Shown here: positions 6,070 through 61,317 of the stretch, one piece after another | Layout of the letters: each line of letters begins with the position of its first letter | Numbering within the stretch: the stretch's first letter is position 1 | The notes under the pieces: model-generated | What the model saw: only the letters and a program-made list of their open reading frames with translations | The model's database searches: none | What the model was told of the DNA's origin: nothing | Made by a program: the position numbers and the translations under genes | Assembly: GCF_036588685.1 (NCBI RefSeq) | Contig: NC_086384.1 | Location: 992,001-1,056,000, forward strand | Reading direction: 5' to 3' | Length of the DNA: 64,000 nt | Origin: Mytilus trossulus | Lineage: Eukaryota

Positions 6070-6880
6070 GTACGTTTTCTAAAATCTTACTAGAATTGTC
6101 TGCTTTTAATTTTCAATATCGTGTTTGAATTTTATGTTTATTCTTTGAGATATCAAGACACTAAGAATCCATCAAACACTGTTATAAGGAGAACACTATT
6201 TTTTTTTCGAAAGTTCATTTTTAAATGAAAACTATCTAAGATAGTCAGTCACCAAGGATCACGTGCAAAGTCCCGCAATTTATTGATGTAGATTGGTTTA
6301 TTTTTTCGAACCTTTCTGTGTTTCAAACTTTCACTTGTTTGTGTTTTTTCTACATTTAGAGATGGATTTTTGGGAGCTTGAGAGAGAATAAATATTCAAG
6401 AGAATATTTTCTATTTAAATAAATGTTTTATGATTTCATTCGAAAAGCTCATATCCACTTATGATATATTAATGTATATTTTGCTCTGTTAAAGTTTATT
6501 TTATAAATAACCCGAGTTTTCTATTTTGGTTTATTTATCTTCGATAAATTTTCTTCATATATAAAATTAACAATTATCGTAAACACAGTTGTTGTTTTTT
6601 TCAATCAAAAAATATAGAATTTACAAAAAAAGAACTTTCCTTTAAATTTTCAATCGTTTTGGCTATTTAATGTTTTAAATTTGCATATGTCTGACGTAAA
6701 GAAACATTTGTTTTATTCACGTATTGGTTTCTCAAGCAACTCAGTGGGCTTGTCCTAGTATTCAGTACACGTATATTGATAGGAAATAAGGTTATCTGTT
6801 GTATCAGTGTATATTCTTTGCAACAATAACTTATGATATATTATAATGTTTTCCTTGCAGTACAGACGATCCATATCAAA

Positions 6881-7732
6881 ATGGTTTTCACTCTCGCCGT
6901 CGTATTGCTGACTGTCTTCAGTTCTGCCTACTGCTCTGGTAAAGACTCATATGGATATGGTAGCGGGTATGGCTCTGGGTATGGATCCGGAGTTGGATCC
7001 GCAGTCCTTCTAGGAGGTGGCGGTAGTGGATATGGTGGTTACGGACTCGGATCCGGGATCGGATCTGTAGCTGTTCTAGGAGGTTTATCCGGCGCTGGAT
7101 ATGGACCAGTAGGTAAAGGCGGATACGGACCAGCACCAGTTGTTGTCAGTGGTGGATACGGCTCTGGGTATGGCTCTGGGTATGGATCCGGGGTTGGATC
7201 TGCAGTTCTTCTAGGAGGTGGCGGTAGTGGATATGGTGGTTATGGACTCGGATCCGGTGTTGGATCTTTAGCTGTTCTAGGAGGTTTATCCGGCGCTGGA
7301 TATGGACCAGTAGGTAAAGGCGGATACGGACCAGCACCAGTTGTTGTCAGTGGTGGATACGGCTCTGGATATGGCTCTGGGTATGGATCCGGAGTTGGAT
7401 CTGCAGTCCTTCTAGGAGGTGGCGGTAGTGGATATGATGGTTACGGAATTGGATCCGGTGTTGGATCTTTAGCTGTTCTAGGAGGTTTATCCGGCGCTGG
7501 ATATGGACCAGTAGGTAAAGGCGGATACGGACCAGCACCAGTTGTTGTCAGTGGTGGATACGGTTCAGGATATGGATCTGGATATGGATCCGGAGTTGGA
7601 TCTGCAGTCCTTCTAGGAGGTGGCGGAAGCGGATATGGACCAGTTTCAGTCGGAGCAGGATACGGACCAGTCTCCGTAGTTTCCGCTGGTGTCGGAGGCG
7701 GTTATGGTTACGGAAAAGGATCACAATATTAG
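6881..7732 (+). CDS. Secreted Gly/Tyr/Ser/Val-rich repetitive structural protein A (283 aa; shell, periostracum or byssus matrix-type)
   Basis: Acceptor ttccttgcag| at 6860; ATG 6881 in an aaaATGG context; signal peptide MVFTLAVVLLTVFSSAYCS; about 3.4 tandem 67-aa (201-nt) units GYGSGYGSGYGSGVGSAVLLGGGGSG...GPAPVVVSG; ends GKGSQY*. Confidence 0.9.
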   Translation: MVFTLAVVLLTVFSSAYCSGKDSYGYGSGYGSGYGSGVGSAVLLGGGGSGYGGYGLGSGIGSVAVLGGLSGAGYGPVGKGGYGPAPVVVSGGYGSGYGSGYGSGVGSAVLLGGGGSGYGGYGLGSGVGSLAVLGGLSGAGYGPVGKGGYGPAPVVVSGGYGSGYGSGYGSGVGSAVLLGGGGSGYDGYGIGSGVGSLAVLGGLSGAGYGPVGKGGYGPAPVVVSGGYGSGYGSGYGSGVGSAVLLGGGGSGYGPVSVGAGYGPVSVVSAGVGGGYGYGKGSQY

Positions 7733-14774: not shown

Positions 14775-15973
14775 GTAAGATTTTCTGATTTCTTTAAAAA
14801 AAAAAAGGTTTTTTATTTTTTTGATTTAATAAATTTAAGATAGTTTTAAATGAAGGCGACTTTTTGTATTCCTTTAAGGGGTTGCTAGTTCTATTTAATA
14901 TAATATACTTGGTGTTAGCCAAGGCTCCGTATTGTATGCCTTACTTTTTAAAAATAGTTTATAAATTAGACAATTTATAAATGTAAACCATTATAGGTCA
15001 ATAGTATAAGTTTTGTTTTTAACAGCAGAGTAAAGAAATTGTAGTTTTCTATTATCAATTTACTTAGTCAATAATTTAACTGATTTGAGAACGTTTGAAT
15101 GCTACCTTTAAATTTTACCATTAAGAGATGTGTTCATTCAAATATGCATTTATAGACAAAGTATGTCAATATTGAAAATATAAATAAGGATCCACCAAGA
15201 ATAATATTTTTTTCGACCAATCTGGTTCACAAAACATGTATGTTTTCGTGCTTTTTGTTAAACCAAACATAAAAAAATTATCTGATGCTTTACATATTTT
15301 CTGAAAGGATCTAAACATGAAACGATCATGCTTTACATATTACATCTCAAAAAATCTTAAGAACTTTTGTCGAAAGGAAGATCAACAGGAAAAGCATTTA
15401 ATGCGTCAATTTAGGAAACGCAGTGTTAATGGCACGTTGTTTGTGTATCTGTTGTTTTTGCAGGCGTTGAAGACCTTTTCAAAATCACACAGTGTATCAA
15501 CTATAACAGTCACATTGATTTTTATAATTGTCGGATTTAGAAATTGAAATATCGTTTCAAAAATTATCTATCATTGAAGACCGTGTGTTAATTTCCTCAT
15601 TACTTTTCTTTATGAAATGTTGTCAAAAGAAATTAACAAAAATACCAAAAAATAAATTTGAAAAGTCCGTAATTAAAACATAGTCTGTAATCAAATTAAA
15701 AAAAAAAAAAAAATTTGAACCGTTATTAATGTATGATGTATATCAAGATGCATCGATTTTTCTTAAACAAGGAATTTCTCCATAATGATACAATCTGTTT
15801 TGCTAATTCATGTTGAAAGTTTCAAAATGGTTTAGTATCCGGCAAAACTTTTATGTACTATGAGTGAAGTTCCTGTAACAAAAAAAGAAAATTATGCAAT
15901 ACTTTCTGTACAACTAAAAACATTTATAACGAATTACTTTGTTTTCTTTGCAGTACAGACGATCCATATCAAA

Positions 15974-16930
15974 ATGGTTTTCACTTTAGCCGTCGTTTTG
16001 CTAACTGTCTTCAGTTCTGCCTACTGCTCTGGCAAAGACTCATATGGATATGGTAGCGGGTATGGCTCTGGATATGGATCCGGAGTTGGATCCGCAGTCC
16101 TTCTAGGAGGTGGCGGTAGTGGATATGGTGATTACGGACTCGGATCCGGTATCGGATCTGTAGCTGTTCTAGGAGGTTTATCCGGCGCTGGATACGGACC
16201 AGTAGGAAAAGGCGGATACGGACCAGCACCAGTTGTTGTCAGTGGTGGATACGGCTCTGGGTATGGCTCTGGGTATGGATCCGGAGTTGGATCTGCAGTC
16301 CTTCTAGGAGGTGGCGGCAGCGGATATGGTGGTTACGGACTCGGATCCGGTGTCGGATCTGTAGCTGTTCTCGGAGGTGTTTCCGGTTCCGGATATGGAC
16401 CAGTAGGCAAAGGCGGATATGGACCAGCACCAGTTGTTGTCAGTGGTGGATACGGTTCAGGATATGGCTCTGGATATGGATCCGGAGTTGAATCCGCAGT
16501 CCTTCTAGGAGGTGGCGGAAGCGGATATGGACCAGTTTCCGGAGGTAAAGGTGGATACGGACCAGCACCAGTTGTTGTCAGTGGTGGATACGGATCTGGA
16601 TATGGATCTGGATATGGATCCGGAGTTGGATCTGCAGTCCTTTTAGGAGGTGGTGGTAGCGGATATGGACCAGTTTCCAGAGGTTATGGCTCAGGAATCG
16701 CTTTGGGTTCAGTTATTGTCGGAAGCGGATCTGGTGCTGGATATGGATATGGACCAGTCAAAGGAGGTAACGGATACGGTCCAGGACCAGTTGTTGTAAG
16801 CGGTGGATACGGAGCTGGATACGGAGCTGGATACGGACCAGTCTCAGTCGGAGCAGGTTACGGACCAGTCTCAGTTGCAGCTGTCGGTGTCGGAGGTGGT
16901 TATGGCTACGGAAAAGGATCCCAATACTAA
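15974..16930 (+). CDS. Secreted Gly/Tyr-rich repetitive structural protein B (318 aa), paralog of A
   Basis: Acceptor ttctttgcag| at 15953; ATG 15974; signal peptide identical to A; two 67-aa units, then shortened (about 46-aa) units and a unique segment; ends GKGSQY*. Confidence 0.9.
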   Translation: MVFTLAVVLLTVFSSAYCSGKDSYGYGSGYGSGYGSGVGSAVLLGGGGSGYGDYGLGSGIGSVAVLGGLSGAGYGPVGKGGYGPAPVVVSGGYGSGYGSGYGSGVGSAVLLGGGGSGYGGYGLGSGVGSVAVLGGVSGSGYGPVGKGGYGPAPVVVSGGYGSGYGSGYGSGVESAVLLGGGGSGYGPVSGGKGGYGPAPVVVSGGYGSGYGSGYGSGVGSAVLLGGGGSGYGPVSRGYGSGIALGSVIVGSGSGAGYGYGPVKGGNGYGPGPVVVSGGYGAGYGAGYGPVSVGAGYGPVSVAAVGVGGGYGYGKGSQY

Positions 16931-25948: not shown

Positions 25949-26023
25949 TGATATAGTAATATCATAGGTGAGCCCTTGCTCGATATGACCAAATTTATAT
26001 AAGTATTGGGTGAAAATTGGGTT
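25949..26023 (-). repeat. Split direct repeat B2 (element 3' end)
   Basis: Identical to 26338-26412. Confidence 0.95.
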
Positions 26024-26062: not shown

Positions 26063-26094
<32 letters not shown>

Positions 26095-26136
26095 GACGGC
26101 ACACGTTCATTCCATCTATACGGTACCACCATTTTA

Positions 26137-26274
26137 CACAGAACATGTGCAAATCCACCTTTGTATCGACATCATGCACAGAGTGTGTGCAAGTCCACCT
26201 TTGTATTGACAGCATGCACAGAGCATGTGCAAGTCCACCTTTGTATCGACATCATGCAGAGCATGTGCAAGTCC
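26137..26274. repeat. 40-bp tandem repeat (about 3.4 copies) in the A2-B2 spacer
   Basis: tgtgcaa(g/a)tccacctttgtat(c/t)gaca(t/g)catgca repeated; nearby T29 tract at 26063-26091. Confidence 0.9.
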
Positions 26275-26284
26275 CGCTTAGCTC

Positions 26285-26412
26285 TGATAGCAGCGGCCAA
26301 ACTGAATGTATTGGTCAAATCTCGCGGGACTCACTTATGATATAGTAATATCATAGGTGAGCCCTTGCTCGATATGACCAAATTTATATAAGTATTGGGT
26401 GAAAATTGGGTT
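26285..26412 (-). repeat. Internal B1-A2 junction (copy of the circle junction)
   Basis: 26285-26342 equals 34164-34221; 26338-26412 equals 25949-26023; 5-bp TGATA overlap. Confidence 0.95.
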
Positions 26413-27513
26413 ACACAGCAGACCTCAATACTATAAGCTAGTATAACGACAACACACTTATAATTCCCAATTCTAACCTTTACATTCCCAATACTCACCC
26501 AAAACTTAAAAAATTGTCTTGTATAAATGAAGAAGTCAAAATTCTTATACAAATGGGAGTCCATGACAAAACTTGAAATATCGCCAACTAAGCAAACATC
26601 AAAAAGTTAAGAAATTTCAAATGAATACATCCCATGCAGAAAACTGATAAAAGCAGATTATGCCAACTGTTAACTCTTCCGTATACTTCTTGTGTTGTTT
26701 CCGAGACTTTCACGTGCATGCTCCATATCATAAATTTTAACAAACGTATGCAACCTATGACTTAAATTAAAGTGTTAATATTTTCAGTTGAACCGATCTT
26801 AAGTTTGACAGAGCGAACTATCTGTTATGTAGTAGTTTTTGCATACTTCGAGAACGATCAAGTGGTGCATGAGCTCTAGATGATTTATATGTATTACATC
26901 GGGTGACTAAGACAGGTTTTGTGTCTTTGCCCTTTATCCCTTATTTCCCATAATCAGGGAAATCCTCTTGAATATTCAATACATCCAATACATGTATGAA
27001 ATAAAAAGAATGTGTAGAGAATGACATGTGTAATATGTTGTCCATATAAAATCAGATGTTGTTTAATTACTAATGAGACAACTAACCAGCCAAGATCAAA
27101 TGTTGTTGGTGTAAGCAATTCGCATACCTTAATAGAACAGAAACCACAAGTCTCCCTCTAAATTTAACAAACTTATTTTCAAAAACAAATTTCGTTAAAC
27201 AGATTATGAAAAGTAATATTTATTAAAGAAAAGTGTATTCAATACAGTGCGTCTTCACAAAATTTAATTCTAGCATACATGTACAAAATAGTAATACATA
27301 ATATCCCTCGAAAAATAGAGGCAAATCCAATTTCAAAAATTCTCTATTTTTACATACCTTCATACTTAATACATAATATCCCTCAAAATACAAGCTAGTC
27401 ATAGTCATAGTCAATATACATAAATAGTAGTAGTACATTATTCCCTCAAAATACAAAAAATAATTAAACAAGCATCATAAGTAACAAACTTTTACTCTAA
27501 ACACTTCAAACTG

Positions 27514-28830
27514 TCACTGAAAAGCATTGGAAAGTTTATTGACCTCACAATACGACTCGAATATAGATCTACAGATATTAGATTCAGAAACCCCTGTATT
27601 AGCCATGATGGAACTGACTGACCCTCTTCCTACCATACTTGACAATCTACTATATCTTTGGTAAGAGGACGAAGAAGACCAACCTATATGCTGCATGATG
27701 TCACTTGTAGATCCCCCTGACAAAGCTAAAGTAATAGCACAAGCTCCCCGAATTCCATGAGGGGTCTCACCGTCGTAAATATCGAGTTTCTTTAAATATT
27801 TCCTCAAGCGATCATACATAGCATTCGAAGATACAGGATTGTCAGTAACATCTTTTCGATTTCTACTCAACGTACGGAATAAATAACCAAAACGTAAATC
27901 AACTCCAAGTGCCCTGGCACCTTCAACGTACCTTTCCAGTGCTTTGACTGGACAAATTAAAGTATCATCAAATCTTAAGATGGAAAATTCATTCACTTTC
28001 CCTTTTCCAAGTGTTTTGCCTACTGTGTGTGAAAATAGAAAACCGTCACCATTTGGTAATAATTTAACCTCTTGTGAAATACACAAGCCCAAGTCATTCG
28101 CTCTGTCTCCTGAAAAGTATTGAACTTTGAAAAATGCTTGATCTCTAAGGAATATGAATCTTTCAGAGGATTTCATAACAGGATCCAACAACAACTCATC
28201 AATATGAACACTAATTGATCGGAGTTTGTCTAAAAATAGAGGTTTTGCCTGCTTTTGTACAACATGGGATTTTGACTGCTCAAACTGAATAGCATGCAAA
28301 TATTTGTCTACCTCTGGACTACACACAGGATTACCAATTTTAGTTATTTCATTCCACTCAGAACCCCGACCATTAGATTCAAATATAGCTTTTAATTGTC
28401 CTAGCATAGACTGAACAGTTCCTGCTGCTAACCTTAACGGACACTGACATGAATGAATACCCAACTTACCAAGAAATTCACAGGTTAAGTCATGTACTTG
28501 CGTTTTCCCCCTTGAATCCTTCATGACCATAAATCGCCTTACTTCTAAAGGGGAAGCGGTTTTTAAACACTTAACAGGTTCACCTTCAAATAAAAACTTC
28601 TCAAACTCTTTTTCCAGCGAAAGTTTTTTCTTATTATAACTAGTGCTTCCAATTAAACTGTCTAAATATCTCAAACGCCTTTCCACTGAACAATTATTCG
28701 TGATACTTTCCGAACTTTCAATCAAAATGGGTTTTTGTCCACATGACTGGCAAAATTGATACCCAACATCATTTGCATAACCACACACTAAACACTTTTC
28801 TGCTGGCAGCCAAACTCGTGGTACACCATT
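27514..28830 (-). CDS. Tyrosine recombinase with N-terminal CxxC...CxxC zinc ribbon; main exon starts at a phase-0 acceptor
   Basis: Catalytic R (FSGDRANDL), HxxR (HGIR), HIGW and Y (YQRY) are all present; no in-frame ATG before the Zn ribbon; acceptor ttttacctttttgtag|AAT at 28831/28830. Confidence 0.9.
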   Translation of the reverse strand, partial: NGVPRVWLPAEKCLVCGYANDVGYQFCQSCGQKPILIESSESITNNCSVERRLRYLDSLIGSTSYNKKKLSLEKEFEKFLFEGEPVKCLKTASPLEVRRFMVMKDSRGKTQVHDLTCEFLGKLGIHSCQCPLRLAAGTVQSMLGQLKAIFESNGRGSEWNEITKIGNPVCSPEVDKYLHAIQFEQSKSHVVQKQAKPLFLDKLRSISVHIDELLLDPVMKSSERFIFLRDQAFFKVQYFSGDRANDLGLCISQEVKLLPNGDGFLFSHTVGKTLGKGKVNEFSILRFDDTLICPVKALERYVEGARALGVDLRFGYLFRTLSRNRKDVTDNPVSSNAMYDRLRKYLKKLDIYDGETPHGIRGACAITLALSGGSTSDIMQHIGWSSSSSYQRYSRLSSMVGRGSVSSIMANTGVSESNICRSIFESYCEVNKLSNAFQ

Positions 28831-28846
28831 CTACAAAAAGGTAAAA

Positions 28847-31054
28847 CTAAAAATGAAGTCGTGCGACAATTAAACGCCATGGTAAACCCTTAGTGTCCAA
28901 CTTAAACCCTTTAGTAGATGGGTACAACAGGGCTTTGTGTTCATTTCGTTCAGCTAACACATTCCATACTGACACATGTTCCCAGAAAAAAGGCCACCAC
29001 ACTGGTCTTGGAAACAACTCAGGAACCACAAATGTACAACTCTTAACCCCAATCTGAGCACAAAACTTCAAAACGGCAAAAATTAAACAAAAAGGGGGGA
29101 ACACATAAGGATTTTTTTCCAAATTCAAGTCCTGAGAAAAAACATTAACACCATCTGAAAGAACTGTGGGGAATGGTGTAAAATGTTTTAACGGATAACC
29201 ATAAGTATCATTCATAGTATTAGAGTCTAATGCCATCAAATCTGAAGTGTGGGGACCAAACCTCTCTTCAACAAATTTCCACTTCATAGGAGATAACATA
29301 GCATCTGATAATCTCAACTTTCTGGACTCCCTGTCAGCAGGGTTTCTACTAGAACTAGCATATACAAGACGTAGGTCCATGTTAACTGTTTTTGAAAGAG
29401 TGAATATCTTTCGCAAAACTCCATTCAACGAGGGGTCTCTACCTCCTTGATTACTCCAAGCATTAACTACCGCAAGATTATCACAAAACGTGTCCACCCG
29501 AGAGTCGATAATTCTCTCTTTAACAGAACAGAGGGAGTGTAGTAGTGCATTTGCCTCCTTAACGTGGATAGGAGAGCTATCATTCTTATTCCAAAAGTCA
29601 CCAAACTCTACCGTAACCTCTTTGCAAATCATAAAGGCACCCCACTTAAAAAGCGACGAGTCAGTTGCTAAAATCAATTGTAAATGGGTTTCTAATCTCC
29701 AAGAGGCAGTTCCCTTCCAATTATCCAAAAAACGCCAATATTCCAACTCCTCTTTTAACTCTTTGTAAATGTTAATTTTCTTACTATTTTTAGAAGCAAG
29801 GCTTATGGCCCTATTGATTTCCCTTGAAAACAACCTGGCAGAGGGGACAGCAAGAAAAAATGAAATACATTTTCCTGCGAAACGTTGAAGAGTTTTAATG
29901 CCTACGTCATTACCATCAAGGATAGATTCCCTTAAAATTCTAAATGATTCTTTTTTCTGCTCCGGCAAGATGAAGGCCAGTTTTGCTGAGTCACAAAACA
30001 TTCCCAAGAATTTCAAACACCTGGTTGGTATAAAGCAACACTTTTCCAAGTTTAAAAAATATCCCAATCTAACAAGAACCTGACACAGAATGTACAGACT
30101 TTTTACCAATTCGGCATGACCGGATTTCTTCTTCAAATTTGTATTTTTAAACTCGCAAACTAACCTCTCATCTATGTACAATAAAGAAGGTACACCAAGG
30201 GAGCGACAATAGCTGATTGGAACTAGACCAGTAGTGTGATAAATAAAAGCACTAGCTTTGAAGCCGAAAGGAAGAGAGTTAAAAACCATGTACCAGCCTG
30301 CAAACTGGATTCGAAAATACTGTCTAGAATTGGGATTTAAAAGTATATGATCGTAACCAGACTTATCATCAAGAGATGCCATGAAAGAATCCTTTTCTAT
30401 TAATCTAGGAACCTCTTTCAGAGTATCTAACGAAAACGGGAAATCCTTAATCCATAAATTCAAGTATCTTTCATCATGGCACATGCGTGGTTTTGATGGC
30501 TCAATAGTGATAGGTAAAACAAGTAACGGCGGATCACATTCCCCAACTCTACCAATTACAGTTAATGATCCATTGGCTATTCTTTCTAATAAAGTGTCAC
30601 ACAAAAATTTCTCAAATCCTTTGCAACTAGCAGAATTTTGAAAATAAGCAGGTTGGGGAAGACTTGAATCGTAACAACGACCCCTAAAATTTCCCTTAAA
30701 ATGTTTAAACATGGGCCTAATATCTACCCCCTGTTTAATCCAGTCCAAAATTTCACTAGGACAACCTATTTTCTCCCATTGTTCTGAACAATACATTAAA
30801 TTTCCTGCTTTGAAAAAATTAGGATCTAAAAAAGACAGATCCTCAAAATCATAGTCGCTTCCATTTACAACCTCTTCAGCACTTGGTAAGCAATCAGAGG
30901 GTTGGGTGATCTCTCCTTTATAATTTACTAAAAGTATGTCACTTTGCTTTCTTAATTTAACGCTAAATGGATCGAAACCCGATTTTAACTCCCAATCTGG
31001 AATTTCTGGCTCAAACTTTTCTTTCTTAGCCAAAGGTTCATGATCCCTGATATT
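28847..31054 (-). CDS. Pol: reverse transcriptase, RNase H and DNA adenine methyltransferase-like domain
   Basis: RT motifs LDDKSGYDH, LPFG, YIDE (YxDD variant), KFLG; RNase H ATDSS, HVKE, FCDN, NPAD; MT-like DLMA...YVFPP; starts at phase-0 acceptor tttttgttaatttcag|AAT (31055/31054). Confidence 0.92.
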   Translation of the reverse strand, partial: NIRDHEPLAKKEKFEPEIPDWELKSGFDPFSVKLRKQSDILLVNYKGEITQPSDCLPSAEEVVNGSDYDFEDLSFLDPNFFKAGNLMYCSEQWEKIGCPSEILDWIKQGVDIRPMFKHFKGNFRGRCYDSSLPQPAYFQNSASCKGFEKFLCDTLLERIANGSLTVIGRVGECDPPLLVLPITIEPSKPRMCHDERYLNLWIKDFPFSLDTLKEVPRLIEKDSFMASLDDKSGYDHILLNPNSRQYFRIQFAGWYMVFNSLPFGFKASAFIYHTTGLVPISYCRSLGVPSLLYIDERLVCEFKNTNLKKKSGHAELVKSLYILCQVLVRLGYFLNLEKCCFIPTRCLKFLGMFCDSAKLAFILPEQKKESFRILRESILDGNDVGIKTLQRFAGKCISFFLAVPSARLFSREINRAISLASKNSKKINIYKELKEELEYWRFLDNWKGTASWRLETHLQLILATDSSLFKWGAFMICKEVTVEFGDFWNKNDSSPIHVKEANALLHSLCSVKERIIDSRVDTFCDNLAVVNAWSNQGGRDPSLNGVLRKIFTLSKTVNMDLRLVYASSSRNPADRESRKLRLSDAMLSPMKWKFVEERFGPHTSDLMALDSNTMNDTYGYPLKHFTPFPTVLSDGVNVFSQDLNLEKNPYVFPPFCLIFAVLKFCAQIGVKSCTFVVPELFPRPVWWPFFWEHVSVWNVLAERNEHKALLYPSTKGFKLDTKGLPWRLIVARLHF

Positions 31055-31230
31055 CTGAAATTAACAAAAATTTCAACTCTGAAAAATTGCTTGAGATTTA
31101 TAAAAATAAAATAAAGGAGAGAGACACTCAACCCTTGCCCGCGTGAAAAATTTTTCACTGGAGATCGAAGCTCCTGGGAAAGGGAAAGGCATCTAAAAGA
31201 TTAAAATTAAAAAATATACAAAATACATAA

Positions 31231-33069
31231 TTAATTGTCTTTTTTCATCTTTGGACAATTTGCAATAAAATGTCCCGACTCCTTGCAAAAATAACATACA
31301 CCGTTTGACACTCTCCTGCCTCTACCTCCTTGCATTCTTGGAGGCCTAAAACCACCTGAATTATAGTTTGGCCCTGGATAAAAATTAGGATACGGGAAAC
31401 CAAAACCTGGATTCTGATATCCATATCCAGGAAAAGGAAAAGCAGGAGCTGAAGTAGGTGGAGCATCTAATATATCCTGCCTCTCCTTTGACCCTGATGG
31501 TTCCTCGTATTTTTTAGATTTTGCCCAGTCTGAAATTAAGGAGGAAATCTTCTTGTCCTCCTGGGAACCAAATAACTTTAAGACGAGCCCACAAAAATCA
31601 ACATTATCTTCGTATTTTTTACACATTGAAAAAGATTTTGAAAATAAAGAACAGTCCTTATGATTCGCTTTGTTAGCTGCATCAACCAACATTTCGATGG
31701 CCGCAAGTAATACTCCCGGTGTTGTAAGTTTTGGTCTTGCTGCCAAAGTTCTAACGTAAGATAGTGCTTCATCTACCTGTAAAACCTTTGAATTTTTCTT
31801 CAACTCATCCAGGTCTTGTCTCATTGCTTGCAGCTGCTGGTTTGTTGTGGATGGGTCTCCCTGAGCCGCTTTGCCATCACTTCCTACAACAAACAAAACG
31901 AAAAATAACTAAACTTCCTTGCAACAGTTTTTTAATATATATCAAAAGAAAAATCAAGAATATCAAAACATTCTAGCAATACAAATACAGGACAAGGTCT
32001 TGCTCTAAATAACATTCGTAAACTGTAAATGTAGGAAACCATGAAAGTAGCGCCACAACATTAAAACAAAATTAAGCGTTAAACGAAATAACTAAAATAA
32101 CATTAAATTATCAAGTCTAGTTTTCTGTAAAAAATTAAGTTTACTTAGCAAAGAAATCCAGGTTTCTTGAAAATGCAACAAAACAAGACTAGATCTGTTG
32201 TTGTGAATAATATATGTTGCCGTGAATAATATCTCACTTAAATAAACAAACGCCTACATAAACATCAAGTTACAAATAAGAAGAGATTATCTTCGATAAG
32301 CATTTCAAAAGGGCTAAATTAGAACATACGGACAATGCAAGCAAACTAATCCAAAAAACATTCATACCTTTCGCCGCTGGTGTATCTGTACTCGGATTAC
32401 TAGTACCTAACCTCTGACCTCTACCACCAACAGAATTCGCTAACAATATGCTTTCATGCACTAAGAGACGCACATTCTCAATGTTATCATCTTTCCCACA
32501 CAGCAGAATTAATACATCTTTAACGGATTCACCTGGAATTAAAAAAGGCACTAATCAATCAAACGGAACAGATACAATTTCAAGTATAATGTGTAAAAAA
32601 TCACGAACCGTGGAAAGCGAAAAACTCTGAGGTAACTTGCCAAGTTACCGTCAATAAAATCATAAGTTCTGATGACACTAAATAACAAGAATTAACATAA
32701 AAACCAAAAGGCTAAAAATATCGCACCAGACGCAGATCTACATTTCTAAAAAAAAAATGTTTGTTCAAAAGAGCATTATCGGTCAAATGAAGCTAATTAA
32801 ATTATCAAAAACAAAAATTAAAGCCATAATTACTTTGAATACAAGGTTCTCTAAAAGTCTTAAGAAAACGTTATAATAAATTATAAATTACCCGTAAGCT
32901 TCTCAAACTGAGCAATTAATTCGACTTTTGTCAAACTCTCTAATGGTTCATCTTTTTTCAGTCTTGACAGCTCTAAAACCGCTTCTGCATCTGCGTTTTT
33001 TACCCTCAAAATGATCGGGATTAAACTTTTTCCCGCAAGGGAGCAATTTGGCTTCAATACCTGAGCCAT
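31231..33069 (-). CDS. Gag with C-terminal CCHC zinc knuckle; spliced join(33069-32892, 32532-32368, 31883-31231), 331 aa
   Basis: CYFCKESGHFIANC knuckle; two phase-1 GT-AG introns join three separate ORF-track fragments in frame (EKLT-G-ESVK and AAK-G-SDGK). Confidence 0.82.
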
Positions 33070-33094
33070 AGCTGAAATTAAAAAGAATAAATTG

Positions 33095-34087
33095 AGTAAC
33101 CCCATTACAAATCGTGCAATGCGGACTGTCTTCGTCATAATTCTCAATACGCGTTGCAACCAATGCAGACGCAAACTCCATTTTAGTACACTAAATATAA
33201 AAACAGAATTAAACCACAACTACTTTACTGTTATCAACAAAATACATTGCAAGCATTTACTACATTTAACTAGATTTAAAAAACTTGCATAGTAACCCCA
33301 TTAGAAATCCGCCATTAAAAATCGTGCAATGCTGACTGTCTTCGTCATAAATTAAAGATAAAAACATCTTTTTCTAAATGAACTCATGAACATTCAATAA
33401 AATAAATGTGCTCTAAAACTCGTAGAATGAAGTAAACCAAAAACATTCTTCCCGACATACCGGACAGTTCTCAATACGCGTTGCAACCAATGCAGGCGCA
33501 AACTCCATTTTAGTACATTAAATATTAAAACAGCATTAAACCACAACTACTTTACTGTTATCAACAAAATACATTGCAAGCATTTACTACATTTAACTAG
33601 ATTTAAAAAACTTGCATAGTAACCCCATTAGAAATCCGCCATTAAAAATCGTGCAATGCTGACTGTCTTCGTCATAAATTAAAGATACAAATATCTTTTC
33701 TAAAGGAACTCATGAACATTAAATAAAATGTGCTTTTAAACTCCTAAAATGAATTAAACCAAAAACATTCTCCTTCAAAGTTATTATTTCTAGTACCTCG
33801 AAAATAACGCAAAATTCGGAGCTTTCTTCTCCCTAGATATATTTAACAAAAATCTCTTACAATATCTTCATTTAACGCTGCAACCTATGCAAACGCAACT
33901 TAAAGCTTTAAATCATACAACACTTCCCGACATACAGGACAGTTCTCAAAACGCGTTGCAACCATTGCAGACGCAAACTCCATTTTTGTACATTAATTAT
34001 AAAAACAGCATTAAACCACAACTACTAGCTGTTATCAACAAAATACATTGAAAGCATTAACTACATTTAACTAGATTTAAAAAACTT
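33095..34087. repeat. ~327-bp tandem repeats inside the predicted 5'-UTR intron of the retrotransposon
   Basis: ttctcaa(t/a)acgcgttgcaacca... at 33141, 33468 and 33943. Confidence 0.85.
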
Positions 34088-34163
34088 ACTTCCACAGTAA
34101 GAAACTTCTTTACACTACAACCATGCTCTACTCAAGAGCTGTTAAAGTCCGTGCTGTCACGCT

Positions 34164-34221
34164 TGATAGCAGCGGCCAAACTGAATGTATTGGTCAAATC
34201 TCGCGGGACTCACTTATGATA
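34164..34221 (-). repeat. Split direct repeat A1 (element 5' end; probable promoter)
   Basis: Identical to 26285-26342; on the - strand it carries TCCCGCGAGA, CCAAT and an Inr-like TCAGTT. Confidence 0.9.
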
Positions 34222-35887: not shown

Positions 35888-36638
35888 TTAATATTATTAG
35901 ACACTGCTTAAAATTCGAAGATGCGGTTACCCTAAATATTTCACCTATCTAGATATAGAAAAATGTGGTATAAGTGCAAATAAGACAACCCTATCGGTCC
36001 GTTTAAATCTTTTGTAAACGCAAGATAAAAGTATGGTTAGGACAGCAATGATATTTTGCACAGCTTTGTGCAGCATATGCAGACTAGCTCCTTAAGTATA
36101 TATGGCTACACTATGACGTAGTACAGTTTTTGAGCATATTATGCAGATGTGCGTATCATTTTTTTATTTAGAATTAAGGTAATGTTGACATGAAACAAAA
36201 CAATATCATTTAGATTTCAATGGAACTATATTTTGGTATGACATACCACCCCACATTATTCCCATGTGTCAAATGATAAGTTTATAAACTGATTTTTCAC
36301 AGGATTTAACAACATATATGGTATACCATTATAAGTCTTCTATCTAACTACATATATAAAATACCATAACAATGGATGTCTGTTTAGCATATTATCTTAA
36401 AAATTACGAAAAGTAATAAATTGAGTTCAGAAAAAATATATTCTACTATTGTATAAATCGTTTTTTGTGGTATTATTTCTTCAAAATACTTATTTCAATT
36501 AGATATATACATTACATTTATACGCACCAGTACATTTTGTTTATTCTTCAAATGATTGACTTACAGTAGCTAAGAATACATTAAATTAATGTACCTTTTT
36601 ATTATTTCTTTTTTGCAGTTTGGAAATACCTCAATAAA

Positions 36639-38189
36639 ATGTATTTTCCTGTAGTTATTATTTTTCTGACTGCATGCATTTCTGGCACATGTTCATATGG
36701 ATACAGGAGTGGAGTGGCTTCTGGTATTCACCAACTTGGCCGACGTAGATATGAAGGATTTGGACTTAGACCTGGTGTAGGTTCTTTGTTTCTTCTACGA
36801 GGCAAACCCAGTGCTGGTTATGGATCAGTGTCTGTAAGTAATGGTGGATATAATAAAGGACCAGTTGCTGTTAGTGGTGGACAAGGCTCTGGATATGGTA
36901 ACGGAGTTGGTTCAACACTCCCTCTAGGTAATGGAAGTGCCAACGGGACAGTTTCTGGATCTGGACATGAAGCAAACAACAGATTCAGTGGGTACGGTAT
37001 TAATCCACTTGTTAGCGGTGTCTTCGCTGGTGGAAACGGTGGTGTAATTGCTGATGAAAACGGTGGTAGATTCGGTGGTGAAATCGCTGGTGGAAGCGGT
37101 GGTGGATTTAATACTGGAAATGGTGGTAGACAGTCTTTCACAATCGCTCGTGCTCGTGCAAACATTGGAATTAATACTGGAAACGGTGGTAGACTCCCTA
37201 CTGGATTCGCTGGTGGAAGCGGTGGTGGATTTAATACTGGAAATGGTGGTAGACAGTCTTCCACAATCGCTCGTGCTCGTGCAAACATTGGAATTAATAC
37301 TGGAAACGGTGGTAGACTCCCTACTGGATTCGGTGGTGGAAACGATGGTGGATTTAATACTGGAAACGGTGCTGTATTTTCTAGTGGATTCGGTGCTGGA
37401 TTCAGTACTGGAAACGTGGGTGGATTCCCTGGTGGAAACCTCAATGGATTTACTTCTGATAACAATAATGGATTCCCTAATTTTGCTGGGTACCCTACAG
37501 AACCACTTGTTAGCGGTGGATACAACGGATACGGTGGATTTGGTGGATTTGTAGGTGGATACAACGGATACGGTGGATATGGTGGATTTGGTGGTGTATA
37601 CAACGGATACGGTGGATATGATGGATTTGTAGGTGGATACAACGGATACGGTGGATATGATGGATTTGGTGGTGGATATGGTGGATTTGGTGGTGTATAC
37701 AACGGATACGATAGATATAGTAGATACTTAGCTAGATATGGGCCAGTCTTTGGAGCTAGATATCGACCGAACAAAGGATTGCGCAGGGACATAGGATCAG
37801 TTGTTATTAAAGTACGTACCCATACAAAATATAGAAAAAAATCAGACTTTCATATCTCATACATCTCAATGATTGAAGATAAATTGTTACGGTGTTCTGT
37901 CGTTAATAAGATGTTCGTTTGTTATATCCTGGTCTCAATTATAAAAAAAAATGTCAAAAGGGTAGAAATAAAGAAAGTAGTCTCTAATGACACTACGTTT
38001 AATTTCACAGTTGACGATCGCAGACATTAGTTATAACGTTGGGCTATCTCAGTAGAGATTTCCAGAATATTTCCATCATTGCATTAGCATAGAAACAAAA
38101 CAACATCTGAAATGTTCATACGAATACACACACACATATGTCATATTTATATATTTGATGTTTTGTATTTACAGGTGAAAGGATTATAA
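36639..38189 (+). CDS. Secreted Gly/Asn/Tyr-rich structural protein C; join(36639-37811, 38175-38189), 395 aa
   Basis: Acceptor ttttgcag| at 36618; signal peptide MYFPVVIIFLTACISGTCS; 41-aa duplication with TIARARANIG; 13-aa GGYNGYGG(F/Y)xGF repeats; Arg-rich tail; phase-0 donor AAA|GTACGT at 37812 joins exon GTG AAA GGA TTA TAA; AATAAA at 38311. Confidence 0.82.
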
Positions 38190-55200: not shown

Positions 55201-57500
55201 AATTTTGTGCAAATCCTTTGTTTCTGAAAAATTCATTAAAAACGTTTTCAAATGTTCCCTCCAAAACTATCAAAATTATCTCCCTTTGTCATAGGGGGCG
55301 CTCTACTGTTGTTGTTGTTGGTATAGTAACAAGATGGATGTCCCCATGGATGAGTTGGGGAAGTGTTCCCTCCACAGTTATTTTGAGGGGGACTGTAGCC
55401 TTTCCAGCAAATTTCCAAATGAAATTTGTTTGAAACTTATTGTGAATTGTAATAAGAGCATTGTTGGACATTTGAGAGCATGTAACATGGGTGAAAAGTC
55501 GGTAAAATCAGAAGGGGAGTTGCTTTGTTTACGTGCTGGGATATGGAAATGGAGACCTGAAACTGACCATGGGATTTCAGTATGCCCTGCTCACAGATAC
55601 CAGTATGGAATTGGATGGAGACCAAAAGTAAGGTGTGGCTTTTTTAGACACCCGACAACCTCCAACAGCAAAGCACAACGTGGAATGCCTGCACCGATGT
55701 GTGAAGCTGTTCAATTAAGCTGGGGAACTTTATGTATCATTACATTTTTAATTTGAAAAATAAGCAGAATATTTTGTTCCAATGCATTGTTTTAGTAACT
55801 GACATTTTCTGTAAAAAAATTATTCATTTTTGTTTGCTAAGACAGTAACACAAGTTTTTTGTACTTTTAAAAGAAATATATTTGTAACCTTCCAAAATTC
55901 TGTAAGCCCCTGACTACACAAAGATAACTACTATTATTTTTTTGCCATATTTTCTATTAGCTTCTTGTTTTATTGTCTATTTATGTTTACACATATTATT
56001 TCAGAATTCACAGTACTCTCAGACCACAAACTCCCAGACTTCTAATTGGAGTGACTGTAGTGAGCTTGCACTGGAGAAAGTAAACATGGTAATGGAATCA
56101 ATCAATGTGAGCCCCTTACGTTCCACACTACAAAAAGAAATTACAGATTTAAAAGATTCAACAATCAGATATTACAAGCGGAAAGCACATGAATCTATTG
56201 ATTCATTGTTGGATTTTATGGCTCCAAAACAAGGACATTTACTTAAAGATGAAGTTTTAACTAAAAACAGGGACACATCTTTACCAACAGAGAGTGCTAT
56301 GATAGAAGATCTTTCAAAACTCTACATGGAAACAGTGGACAACTCCTTAAAAATGCAAATTCTATCTGTAATCACCAATAGACTTACCAAGGCAGAACTT
56401 CAAACAGCAATACCAGGTATAACCATTTATCGTATAGACCAGGCACGACTTCATTTCAATACCTCTACAAATTTGGGTCTTCAAGTCAAAAATAAAATAA
56501 AAGTACCACATCAAAGAATGGATGACAGCAAGCTTGAACATGCCATAAGTTGTTTTTTTGACACTTCATTTATGCAGCTAGTATCCTATGGTACAAGAGA
56601 TTTAAAAATGGATTCAGGGGAAAATATAACTATACCAGATGTAATCAGAACAACAAATCACTCCAAAATTATAGACCTGTACTTTTCATACTGCACAGAA
56701 TCAAATTTTGAACCACTATCTAAATCAACTTTATTTAAAATTCTAAATACTTGTGCTGCTACTAAACGCACCAATTTACACGGATTAGACAATATTGCAG
56801 ATGAGGGAATTGAAGGTTTTGAATCACTTAAAGAAATTACAAAACACATTTATGAAAGATCCATTCTATCAACTGAAGAACACGAACAGATACAAAAAAA
56901 TATCACATCAGCAAAACTTTACTTCAAAACCGATTATAAACTTCATCTGGAAAAAGACTGCCTGTGTGCTGACCATTGTCTTCAATGGCTTTTGAGTGAC
57001 CCTGAAAACTGTCAATTTCAAAGTCCCTGTGAGCACATTCATACATTAGTGTGTGATAGGTGTGAAATGTTACATGGCATAGAGGATGATGTGTTCAAAT
57101 GTATTGGTAAGATGGGAGATGATGACTTCAAAGAGGATACCACCAAAAACTTCCAGGATGCATTACAGAAAATCAACGACTGGAAAGCACATATTGCTAG
57201 AAATGTGAATCAAGACCTTTTTAGAACTCAAAAGCTAGATAATTTAAAGCGATTTGAGGGAGTTTTAGTGATGGACTGGGCAATGAAGTTTCTACCAATG
57301 AGATACAGAGAGAAACAAACAGATTGGTTTGGCCAAAGGGGAAAACATTGGCATGTCAGCGTCTGCATTTATAGATGAAAGTGGTGAAATTGGGGTAACT
57401 AATTTTAATGTAACAATGTAACACATAATTCAAACAACAAAACTAATGGCCTTATTTATATAAAAAATGTACGAAAAACAAATATGTAACTCATTAAGAA

Positions 57501-59263: not shown

Positions 59264-61317
59264 TTATGTAAAGTTGCACTATATCACAGTACAAATTTAA
59301 AACAATATTCTGATATGCTGCAATCATATGTTTTATATAAAAAAACATTTGGCAGAGGACTTATTCAAAAGATCATAAAATTAAATGAACAAGAAAAAAA
59401 GACACAAAAATATTTAGGAATACAAACAGGAACTTCAACCAACCTACATGTAGTTCAAAGCTTTTAAAATAAAGAAAATACTTCAAAATATAAGCTATAT
59501 ATTTATAAGTAGACTCTCAAATCTTTGTTCATGTTTATTTTGTGATTTTTTGCAGGTATTCAAATAAAGCAATATTCATATTCAGAGGCTCAGGCCGGAA
59601 AGTCCTACTGTGACTTAAAAATTGCTCATATGAGAACCAAGATGAGATCCTTTGTGGCAACCGGAAATAATATTTTGAATGCAGACGACATGAAAACTGC
59701 AATTGATTATGGAAAAGGTACATTGTAAATTTATTCTTTAAACATAAGAAGATGTGGTATGATAACCATTGATTGAGACATATTTCTATCCAAGACTTAA
59801 ATTAGTAAATTTAAGCAATTATAGGTCACAGTGTAGCTTCAAAGTGAGGCCTTGATTCAATAGCAGAGTAAAACTATACAAAAAAAACAATTATAAAATA
59901 CAGCACAAGAGACAATCAATTAATTGACAGTTGACTTCTTTAAAAGATTAATAGGTGTACAGAATACAATTTTAATTTACCAGCTCTATAAACAAAATCA
60001 CCTTTAACTATGTGTTACATAAAGGTCAAAGGTCAAGACATAATCATTGCATCTGCTAAGTTTTATATAATAAGTTCAATTCCCTTTCTTACAGGTGTAG
60101 CTGGATGTCAAGTGGCCCATGTTATTGTTGAAACATCAAAACATATTCTCAAGACTCATACTTTAAAAAATATAACACATTACAACGATTTTCAGTACAC
60201 AGAATCTGGTGTTGTATTCAGAAAAGCTTATGGTATTGGGGATGGATTGTCAATGACTTATAGTGAGTTAACTGAATTATCAGGCCATTGTCAAAATGAA
60301 ACTGGATGTACTCTTGTAACAGATTTTGTTCTGCCATCAAAGGTCAAAGGAAAGATCAAGTTAACAAAAGCTGAAAGTAATGCTGTAGAAAATGAAATGA
60401 GTACTGAGACCACAACAATAAGACCAGTCAGTTCATCTGCTTTGCAGACACCACTCTCCTTTCATTGCCCAGAACCAGGTTGTATTAAGCATTATGCTTC
60501 TTACAGAACTCTAGAAAATCATGTTTTATTAGGTAAACATGATTTAAGATTAGAAAGAGAATCGGTATATGATATCATTCGCAAGCAATGGGCAGAACTC
60601 TGCAACAATGTTATTGTTACAAGGAAGAAAAATGTTGCCAGCCAATGTACAGATAATCCACAAGCTGTAGAAACCCTTCCTATGGGTTGGGCATTAAAAA
60701 GGGCCAGAAAGGTGAATAGATTTCCTACCAAGATTAAAAACTTCCTTATTAAGAAATTCAATGAAGGAGAGAAAAGTAAAAACAAATGCAGTCCAGATGA
60801 TGTCGCATTAGAAATGAAATCAATGAGGGATACTGAGGGCAGACGTGTATTTCAGTTAAACGAATGTTTAAATAGTACTCAAATTACATCTTTCTTCTCA
60901 CGATTGGTATCAGCTAATGCAAGTAACAACAAGAAAATAGTACCTGAAGATGATGACTTGGTAGCTGCTGCTGTTGCAATAAATCAATCTGAATTAATTG
61001 AATCAGTTAACTCTGCAAAAACAACAAATGACTGTTAAGAAATAGTGCATATATTCACTTAAAAGCTTGTTAATTTAGAAATGTTTGAAAAATACAAAAT
61101 TCAATTTTATCCATTTTTAAATGTAGTTATAAGTTTTATGATTTTAATTGTATAATTTTGATAGAATTTTATCTTTAATAATTTGAAAATTTAAAGATAG
61201 TCAGACTGAAACAGATAACCTACTTGCATTGTCAACTAATCATTTTGAATTATGTAAACTTTCAATAAAAATCATTTCCTCTCTGAAATAGTTCAAGAAC
61301 AATTTTAATTCTTGATA

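Follow-up and report, generated by a model that had tools for sequence, protein, structure and literature searches.

The window analysed here is a stretch of 64,000 nucleotides from Mytilus trossulus (NC_086384.1, positions 992,001 to 1,056,000) and contains an intron-bearing tyrosine recombinase (YR) retrotransposon. The element occupies 8.3 kb of the minus strand, from 34221 to about 25950, and is longer than in the original prediction, which was made from the sequence alone. An alternative donor in the third gag exon very probably joins 150 Gag residues to Pol, as seen in one transcript contig, and likely joins them to the recombinase as well. Introns are erased by reverse transcription, and retroelements normally avoid them for this reason. 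Four or five functional introns are present in the lineage studied here: every protein appears to require splicing, yet the unspliced form appears to be copied. Together with a predicted RNA fold that is conserved, the junction map makes the translation of pol and YR, the choice of template, and priming testable for the order DIRS. Bivalve gene sets list such isoforms as 'uncharacterized proteins', and repeat annotation based on open reading frames (ORFs) would wrongly class such elements as dead. The original prediction had proposed alternative splicing with a mini-exon in front of pol and YR. The general idea stands—gag undergoes splicing, a splice leads to pol and very likely also to YR, and the copies keep their introns—whereas the route through the mini-exon is wrong.

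Splicing of gag and pol and probable splicing of the recombinase

Transcript evidence comes from the contigs of four (X1, X2, X3, and X10; four studies) of 20 listed public runs, the RNA status of which is a guess. Contigs drop rare splice forms, cannot show transcript starts, ends or levels, and carry no evidence for regions that they do not cover. The non-coding leader exon (34090..34221) contains one upstream ORF of four codons and ends, as predicted, at the donor GAA/GTAAGT at 34089. It is followed by intron 1 (33072..34089), which has a length of 1018 nt and internal duplications at a spacing of ~327 nt. An X2 contig covers 34163-34090 and joins 33071 with GT-AG ends. A triplication with decayed copies of the donor affects the 5' part of intron 1 (33121-34087), and this part aligns poorly in L032 and L038. 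Gag exon 1 (32892..33071) has its ATG at 33069, just after the acceptor at 33072, and holds 59 codons plus 1 nt; its peptide also opens the RefSeq models P0002 and P0243. Gag exon 2 (32368..32532), defined by an ORF fragment and contig joints, lies between the phase-1 introns 2 (32533..32891) and 3 (31884..32367). The joint 32892>32532 is found in X3 and X10 and, one base off, in X2; the joint 32368>31883 is found in X2, X3, and X10. Both have GT-AG ends. All three gag-side junctions named in the original prediction are present in contigs, with the X1 contigs featuring none of the four joints observed in total.

Gag exon 3 (31231..31883) encodes a coiled coil, a helical domain, a CCHC knuckle (zf-CCHC, E 4.9e-05), and the stop codon. 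The three coding pieces of 178, 165, and 653 nt add up to 332 codons including the stop and hence to a Gag of 331 aa. Two 331-aa gag models, P0197 and P0199, agree with this exon map; they may stem from this assembly or one close to it and are left out of the independent evidence. In addition, X2 yields a contig of 4.2 kb that runs without a splice from gag across pol and YR, which is what gag mRNA or genomic RNA would give. The structure model of Gag features a folded domain (residues 1-98) and a helix (125-162), but is uninformative as to relationship because its best fold matches are only generic helical bundles (VIA, Z 8.8), with no Foldseek match at E<=0.001. Gag intron 2 varies across families: in L076 it is positioned about six codons further upstream, in phase 0, and it is absent in L082, L074, L121, and L122. 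Judging by this intron, gain, loss or shift of introns takes place inside a retroelement lineage.

The helix of Gag is cut by a donor that the original prediction overlooked, as it did the terminal repeats A1, B1, A2, and B2. This donor, CAG/GTAGAT (31771..31779; intron start 31776), is in phase 0 after Gag codon 150. It matches the consensus at 7/9 positions, a score equal to that of three confirmed donors and reached by 13 of 372 GT sites, and its GT is kept in all seven copies covering the site. One X10 contig shows an unpredicted joint, 31777>31054, with GT-AG ends, a depth of 4.4, and a short side of 29 nt. RefSeq models usually follow RNA-seq introns. The RefSeq model XP_076090318.1 joins Gag residue 150 to Pol residue 1, which equals the contig joint, and XP_071177955.1 joins Gag residue 150 to YR residue 1, which equals 31777>28830. 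Because the observed pol joint and these models leave from the same donor, we consider it highly probable that an N-terminus of 150 aa is common to Gag (331 aa) and Gag-N-Pol (885 aa), and likely to Gag-N-YR (588 aa) as well. These fusions replace the products of 755 aa (Pol) and 458 aa (YR) that had been derived from the mini-exon.

Models of Gag-N fused to Pol also occur in the scallop Argopecten (XP_069129670.1, 887 aa), the oyster Saccostrea (XP_062568476.1, 847 aa), and the nemertean Lineus (XP_064641919.1, 879 aa), and a model of Gag-N fused to YR, with a different YR start, occurs in Saccostrea (XP_062580551.1, 584 aa). Mollusc-like families feature a phase-0 donor either at Gag 151 or seven codons downstream; the downstream position is a full consensus site in three of them and coincides with the junction of the oyster model. 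Families differ in where the donor lies: a comparison of P0004 with P0229/P0258 shows that the RefSeq model for YR of a sister Mytilus family departs from Gag ~22 codons earlier, before the coiled coil.

On the acceptor side, the pol exon (28847..31054; 735 aa) follows a phase-0 acceptor at 31055 and encodes reverse transcriptase (RT; RVT_1, E 1.4e-08), RNase H, and a methyltransferase-fold domain. The YR exon (27514..28830; 438 aa) follows a phase-0 acceptor at 28831, retained in all seven copies covering it, and encodes a zinc ribbon, an ALOG domain, and the tyrosine recombinase (Pfam: ALOG, E 2.1e-21; Phage_integrase, E 7.4e-09). As the original prediction had noticed, neither exon has a nearby ATG: the first Met is codon 87 in pol and codon 101 in YR, the latter downstream of the zinc ribbon (residues 11-32). 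Relatives comprise 93 loci (13 from the own genome, 80 from metagenomes), in which 60 YR and 63 pol starts can be scored, the rest being truncated or without a hit. By a crude acceptor score made for this analysis, with near-identical loci included, the best acceptor-like AG lies in phase 0 at 49 of 60 YR and 44 of 63 pol starts, where one third is expected. The frames of 57 of the 60 YR relatives have no in-frame ATG before the conserved start (ATG in 3/60). Frameshifting or read-through from gag to pol or from pol to YR is rejected because the frames do not overlap, being 176 and 16 nt apart, because in-frame stops intervene, and because the spacer length varies by 4-12 nt among copies.

Two loci of a more distant YR family (L078, L084) keep the phase-0 acceptors before pol and YR, have ~750 nt between the two frames, and give no match to the spacer motif described below. 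In L074, L076, L089, and L072, the YR exon starts after the zinc ribbon, with a phase-0 acceptor near residue 40-48. An expressed variant in X10 has lost the AG of the YR acceptor (28832) and carries small insertions in pol; it is probably a defective copy.

In the proposed scheme, a single promoter in A1 would drive all products. Leaving donor 31776 unused would give Gag, 31777>31054 would give Gag-N-Pol, and 31777>28830 would give Gag-N-YR. The shared part, a folded domain of 98 aa and half of the long helix, would likely tag both enzymes for entry into Gag particles, a task that elsewhere falls to frameshifted Gag-Pol.

A number of points weigh against this map. The runs are only guessed to be RNA. 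The pol joint stands in that single contig with its low depth and 29-nt short side. The YR joint, 31777>28830, is found in none of the four runs, which feature no joint into 28830 at all; it comes from one RefSeq model whose read support is not visible. Conservation of the GT at 31776 is partly automatic because the donor falls on a conserved Val codon, and the more distant, coral-like loci have no strong donor in the region of Gag 151. An in-frame ATG precedes the conserved pol start in 21 of 63 relatives; by the crude acceptor score, the mini-exon acceptor at 31193 ranks highest among the phase-0 AGs that lie upstream of pol in the present copy; and eight submitter models reach pol from another donor, at 31299.

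A predicted RNA fold around the pol acceptor

The stretch taken for a mini-exon is better explained as RNA structure: a predicted three-way junction (31136..31180) followed by a long stem. The motif occurs upstream of pol in 15 loci of ~ten lineages, as judged by a profile built from six seeds. The predicted junction contains a hairpin of 4-5 bp with a loop of 6-7 nt and a hairpin of 4 bp. In an alignment of 12 sequences, 91.8% of the cells are paired and 5 of 14 pairs are changed on both sides; the covariation score is reached by none of 500 shuffles, for a structure derived from the same sequences and with several rows mis-registered. The indels that three copies carry in the mini-exon fall in the predicted loop. 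Rfam gives no match at gathering score for the motif; its best hit has an E of 0.067 and lies far below its gathering score.

Directly after the junction, a stem of 25-35 bp pairs with pol coding sequence around the pol acceptor. Its arm 1 (31104..31135), on the intron side, is the best-pairing region among 435 scanning windows of the element, and arm 2 (30897..30930) lies within the pol coding sequence, the stem thus enclosing the acceptor. In most lineages, arm 1 is positioned ~50-120 nt upstream and arm 2 ~50-140 nt downstream of this acceptor. In each of the 15 motif loci, the stem outperforms every one of 100 mononucleotide shuffles, and a stem at -36 kcal/mol or better is predicted at 35 of 43 pol acceptors compared with 2 of 50 YR acceptors. 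A strict junction pattern is found at 16 of 35 de-duplicated pol sites, coral-like ones included, and at 4 of 38 YR sites; two matches represent other folds, and the pattern misses the present copy itself, which counts against the fold. The strand that follows the junction has, in several families, two possible partners, one upstream and the other the pol arm (seen by eye, unquantified), which suggests a putative two-state RNA switch in the spacer. A role of the hairpin loop as a distant branch point gains no support, near branch points being alike at both sites (10 of 35 pol and 12 of 38 YR acceptors). A deep contig of X1 begins at the first hairpin loop, at 31170, with a depth of 58.7 compared with ~4 upstream.

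The predicted fold likely helps to set the splice choice. Three-way junction and stem would loop out and damp the pol acceptor, so that Pol would remain scarce and some transcripts would reach the YR acceptor. The same fold may also mark RNA for packaging because it exists only in RNA that is unspliced at pol or YR.

It is a serious possibility that the fold has no role in splicing at all and serves as a packaging or priming signal (epsilon-like) or as a self-cleaving motif. This reading is compatible with the splicing map and competes only over the role of the fold. Only RNA that still contains the gag-pol spacer can form the fold, the start of the deep X1 contig at the hairpin loop is a weak hint in the same direction, and the primer of DIRS reverse transcription is given as not known (PMC7192593, in excerpt). 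However, the two arms flank the pol acceptor at distances that stay steady from lineage to lineage, and the YR acceptor has no such stem. As a packaging mark, the fold could not separate genomic RNA from gag mRNA, in which the spacer is likewise retained, and no ribozyme family is matched in Rfam that would speak for self-cleavage.

A tentative and rather doubtful picture goes further and concerns a widespread marine YR clade in molluscs, nemerteans, and coral-like hosts: all proteins would come only from spliced RNAs, the shared N-terminus would act as a particle address, and a previously undescribed two-state switch, with the strand behind the three-way junction pairing upstream or with the pol exon, would both time the use of the pol acceptor during transcription and mark unspliced RNA as the genome for packaging and priming. 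If true, this picture would offer a first handle on how RNA is selected and primed in the order DIRS.

Donor 31299, intron retention and the template

According to a further, quite improbable reading, Pol is mainly reached via the weak candidate donor at 31299 (31294..31302), which would fuse a near-complete Gag (309 aa, no knuckle) to Pol and leave 31776 as the minor site. The eight submitter models that use it come from Mytilus assemblies, and the site is intact in all five close copies covering it. Nonetheless, the donor has only 5/9 consensus matches, a score that 134 of 372 GT sites attain, its joint is absent from the contigs of the four runs, and the RefSeq models take 31776 instead; the submitter models may have arisen by ab initio prediction that linked exons to a single long frame.

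The own genome contains near-full-length copies on at least five other contigs at 94-99% identity and at least one at 72-85%, plus fragments. All six other copies compared share the identical start base, with unrelated upstream flanks, and four of the six share a 3' end motif at which the flanks diverge. Proteins 94-100% identical to those of the element are found in Mytilus species. Introns are present in all near-full-length copies, which sit at different genomic sites. The splice dinucleotides, the conservation of which the original prediction had proposed to check, are retained in nearly all copies covering them; of the supported sites, only donor 32891 is an exception, having been lost from the 85% copy. 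Intron-less copies, the other object of that proposal, were not found: none of 119 own-genome loci has adjacent exons for any of seven exon pairs. Unspliced RNA is therefore the likely template for new copies.

How the template would be chosen is touched by a possible proximal mRNA 3' end (27247..27268). Contigs of X1 and X2 stop at 27249 and 27247, and an ATTAAA lies at 27268. Polyadenylation near 27248 would keep spliced mRNAs from being copied and explain the template choice because it lies upstream of the repeats needed for copying; it is only a weak hint because the ATTAAA is not kept in most copies.

Introns would also persist, with no selection of unspliced RNA, if the element spread as DNA by YR excision and reintegration in the manner of Cryptons, a reading still less probable than use of donor 31299. 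It agrees with the absence of intron-less copies. It is at odds with the open frame of RT, RNase H, and methyltransferase and with the repeats, A1 being identical to A2, B1 to B2, and the internal B-A junction being as in template-switch copying; moreover, excision alone does not easily increase copy number. The behaviour of DIRS-1 speaks for both sides: an engineered intron is usually removed on retrotransposition, and unspliced complementary DNA is also seen (PMC7192593, in excerpt).

Least probable of all is a splice from the leader to the 60-nt mini-exon (31192-31133) that would supply the ATG for Pol and YR: acceptor, ATG, and the open stretch up to the GT at 31132 are present in the sequence, the acceptor at 31193 scores well, 7 of 8 other copies retain AG and ATG and 7 of 7 retain the GT, and the X1 contig starting at 31170 is far deeper than gag contigs (starts and levels not being readable from contigs), but use as an exon is not supported, as none of the three joints 34090>31192, 31133>31054, and 31133>28830 occurs in the four runs (where rare forms may be dropped and absence is unproven), the donor GTTGAG, already held to be weak, matches the consensus at 4/9 positions like or below 253 of 372 GT sites, indels break the frame in 3 of 7 other copies, the 85% copy has lost AG and ATG with the motif 76/83 nt identical, the motif persists without the frame in distant families, and the peptide is found in none of 263 fetched proteins.

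Class, relation to known systems and neighbourhood

The element features split direct repeats in the order A1, B1, A2, B2. A1 (34164..34221) contains the 5' end of the element, 34221, and is identical over 58 nt to A2 (26285..26342); B1 (26338..26412) is 100% identical over 75 nt to B2 (25949..26023), the element's 3' end being near 25954. B1 and A2 adjoin in a predicted circle junction. The interval between A2 and B2 carries a 40-nt unit repeated four times in tandem as well as an extended A tract (26063-26292).

By its features alone, the element is a PAT-like, ALOG-type YR retrotransposon of the Mytilus mussel. RVT_1 and Phage_integrase score above the Pfam cut-offs, which places RT/RNase H and a tyrosine recombinase, with no DDE integrase, in the order DIRS; RNase H itself is matched weakly (RVT_3, E 0.12), its motifs being recognized by eye. 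The PAT-like assignment follows from the split direct repeats and from the methyltransferase fold after RT/RNase H. The last 157 aa of Pol are modeled with a confidence (pLDDT, predicted local distance difference test) of 88.8, and all 50 listed fold matches are of methyltransferase type, the best with a Z of 9.8 and a root-mean-square deviation of 3.5 over 140 residues; by sequence, the domain has no Pfam, PHROG or Protein Data Bank match. The zf-CCHC in Gag and the B1/A2 repeats downstream of YR (26412-26285) correspond to the echinoderm form of Pat1-like elements, and zinc ribbon, ALOG, and YR catalytic domain correspond to the ALOG-type DIRS1-like elements. A Ngaro-like element, with split direct repeats and no methyltransferase, is excluded by the methyltransferase fold, and a DIRS1-like element in the strict sense, with inverted termini and an internal complementary region, by terminal repeats that are direct only, no terminal inverted pair being listed.

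The literature search found no spliced YR retrotransposon, with the main reviews, Repbase entries, and supplements outside its reach. A fungal DIRS element is reportedly interrupted by an isolated intron. Introns and splicing are unmentioned in the main texts of PMC3537659, PMC3266345, and PMC3783388, as are introns in those of PMC4157794 and PMC6681497; the excerpts of PMC10294476, PMC9341512, PMC9940879, PMC12477816, and PMC13465315 contain nothing on spliced YR elements. The PAT-like elements of the echinoderm form (Pat1) are known from papers without introns or spliced expression (PMC4157794, in excerpt), whereas the present element has three gag introns and a pol and YR without a start of their own. 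ALOG-containing DIRS1-like retroposons of marine animals, molluscs included, feature a zinc ribbon, ALOG, and catalytic domain as well as a methylase-like domain (PMC3537659, in excerpt), and the YR studied here has the same architecture, with zinc ribbon and ALOG at the N-terminus. Metazoan ALOG-type copies were all inferred to be inactive (Iyer and Aravind 2012, PMC3537659, in excerpt); here, in contrast, open frames are combined with copies that resemble each other at 94-99% and with spliced transcripts.

In part, the element resembles foamy viruses, Copia (reversed), and Penelope, yet it belongs to none of them. Foamy viruses make Pol from a spliced subgenomic RNA via a suboptimal splice site and use unspliced RNA as the genome (PMC7828637, in excerpt). 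Both systems splice pol, but foamy Pol is separate from Gag and foamy Gag comes from unspliced RNA, whereas the Pol of this element keeps the 150-aa Gag N-terminus, its Gag requires three splicing events, and a third isoform supplies the integrating enzyme. In the Ty1/Copia element EVD of Arabidopsis, alternative splicing and early termination set the amounts of structural protein and enzyme (PMC5580714, in excerpt). There, splicing yields Gag and unspliced RNA yields Gag-Pol; here, unspliced RNA encodes no element protein. Penelope-like elements retain introns after retrotransposition (PMC8557442, in excerpt), but they belong to an unrelated RT clade and have a single ORF, usually one intron, and no three-way isoforms.

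The YR element is located inside a cluster of three repetitive Gly/Tyr-rich ORFs on the plus strand (6830-7732, 15836-16930, and 36585-38030). They have hydrophobic N-termini, two of them are near-paralogous, and we take them to resemble secreted shell or byssus matrix proteins. Two long Cys/His-containing ORFs on the plus strand (55906-57378 and 59992-61038) are possibly parts of a DNA transposon. Between 43000 and 47000, the GC content rises to about 0.41 with no ORF of at least 170 aa; this region is possibly a decayed repeat.

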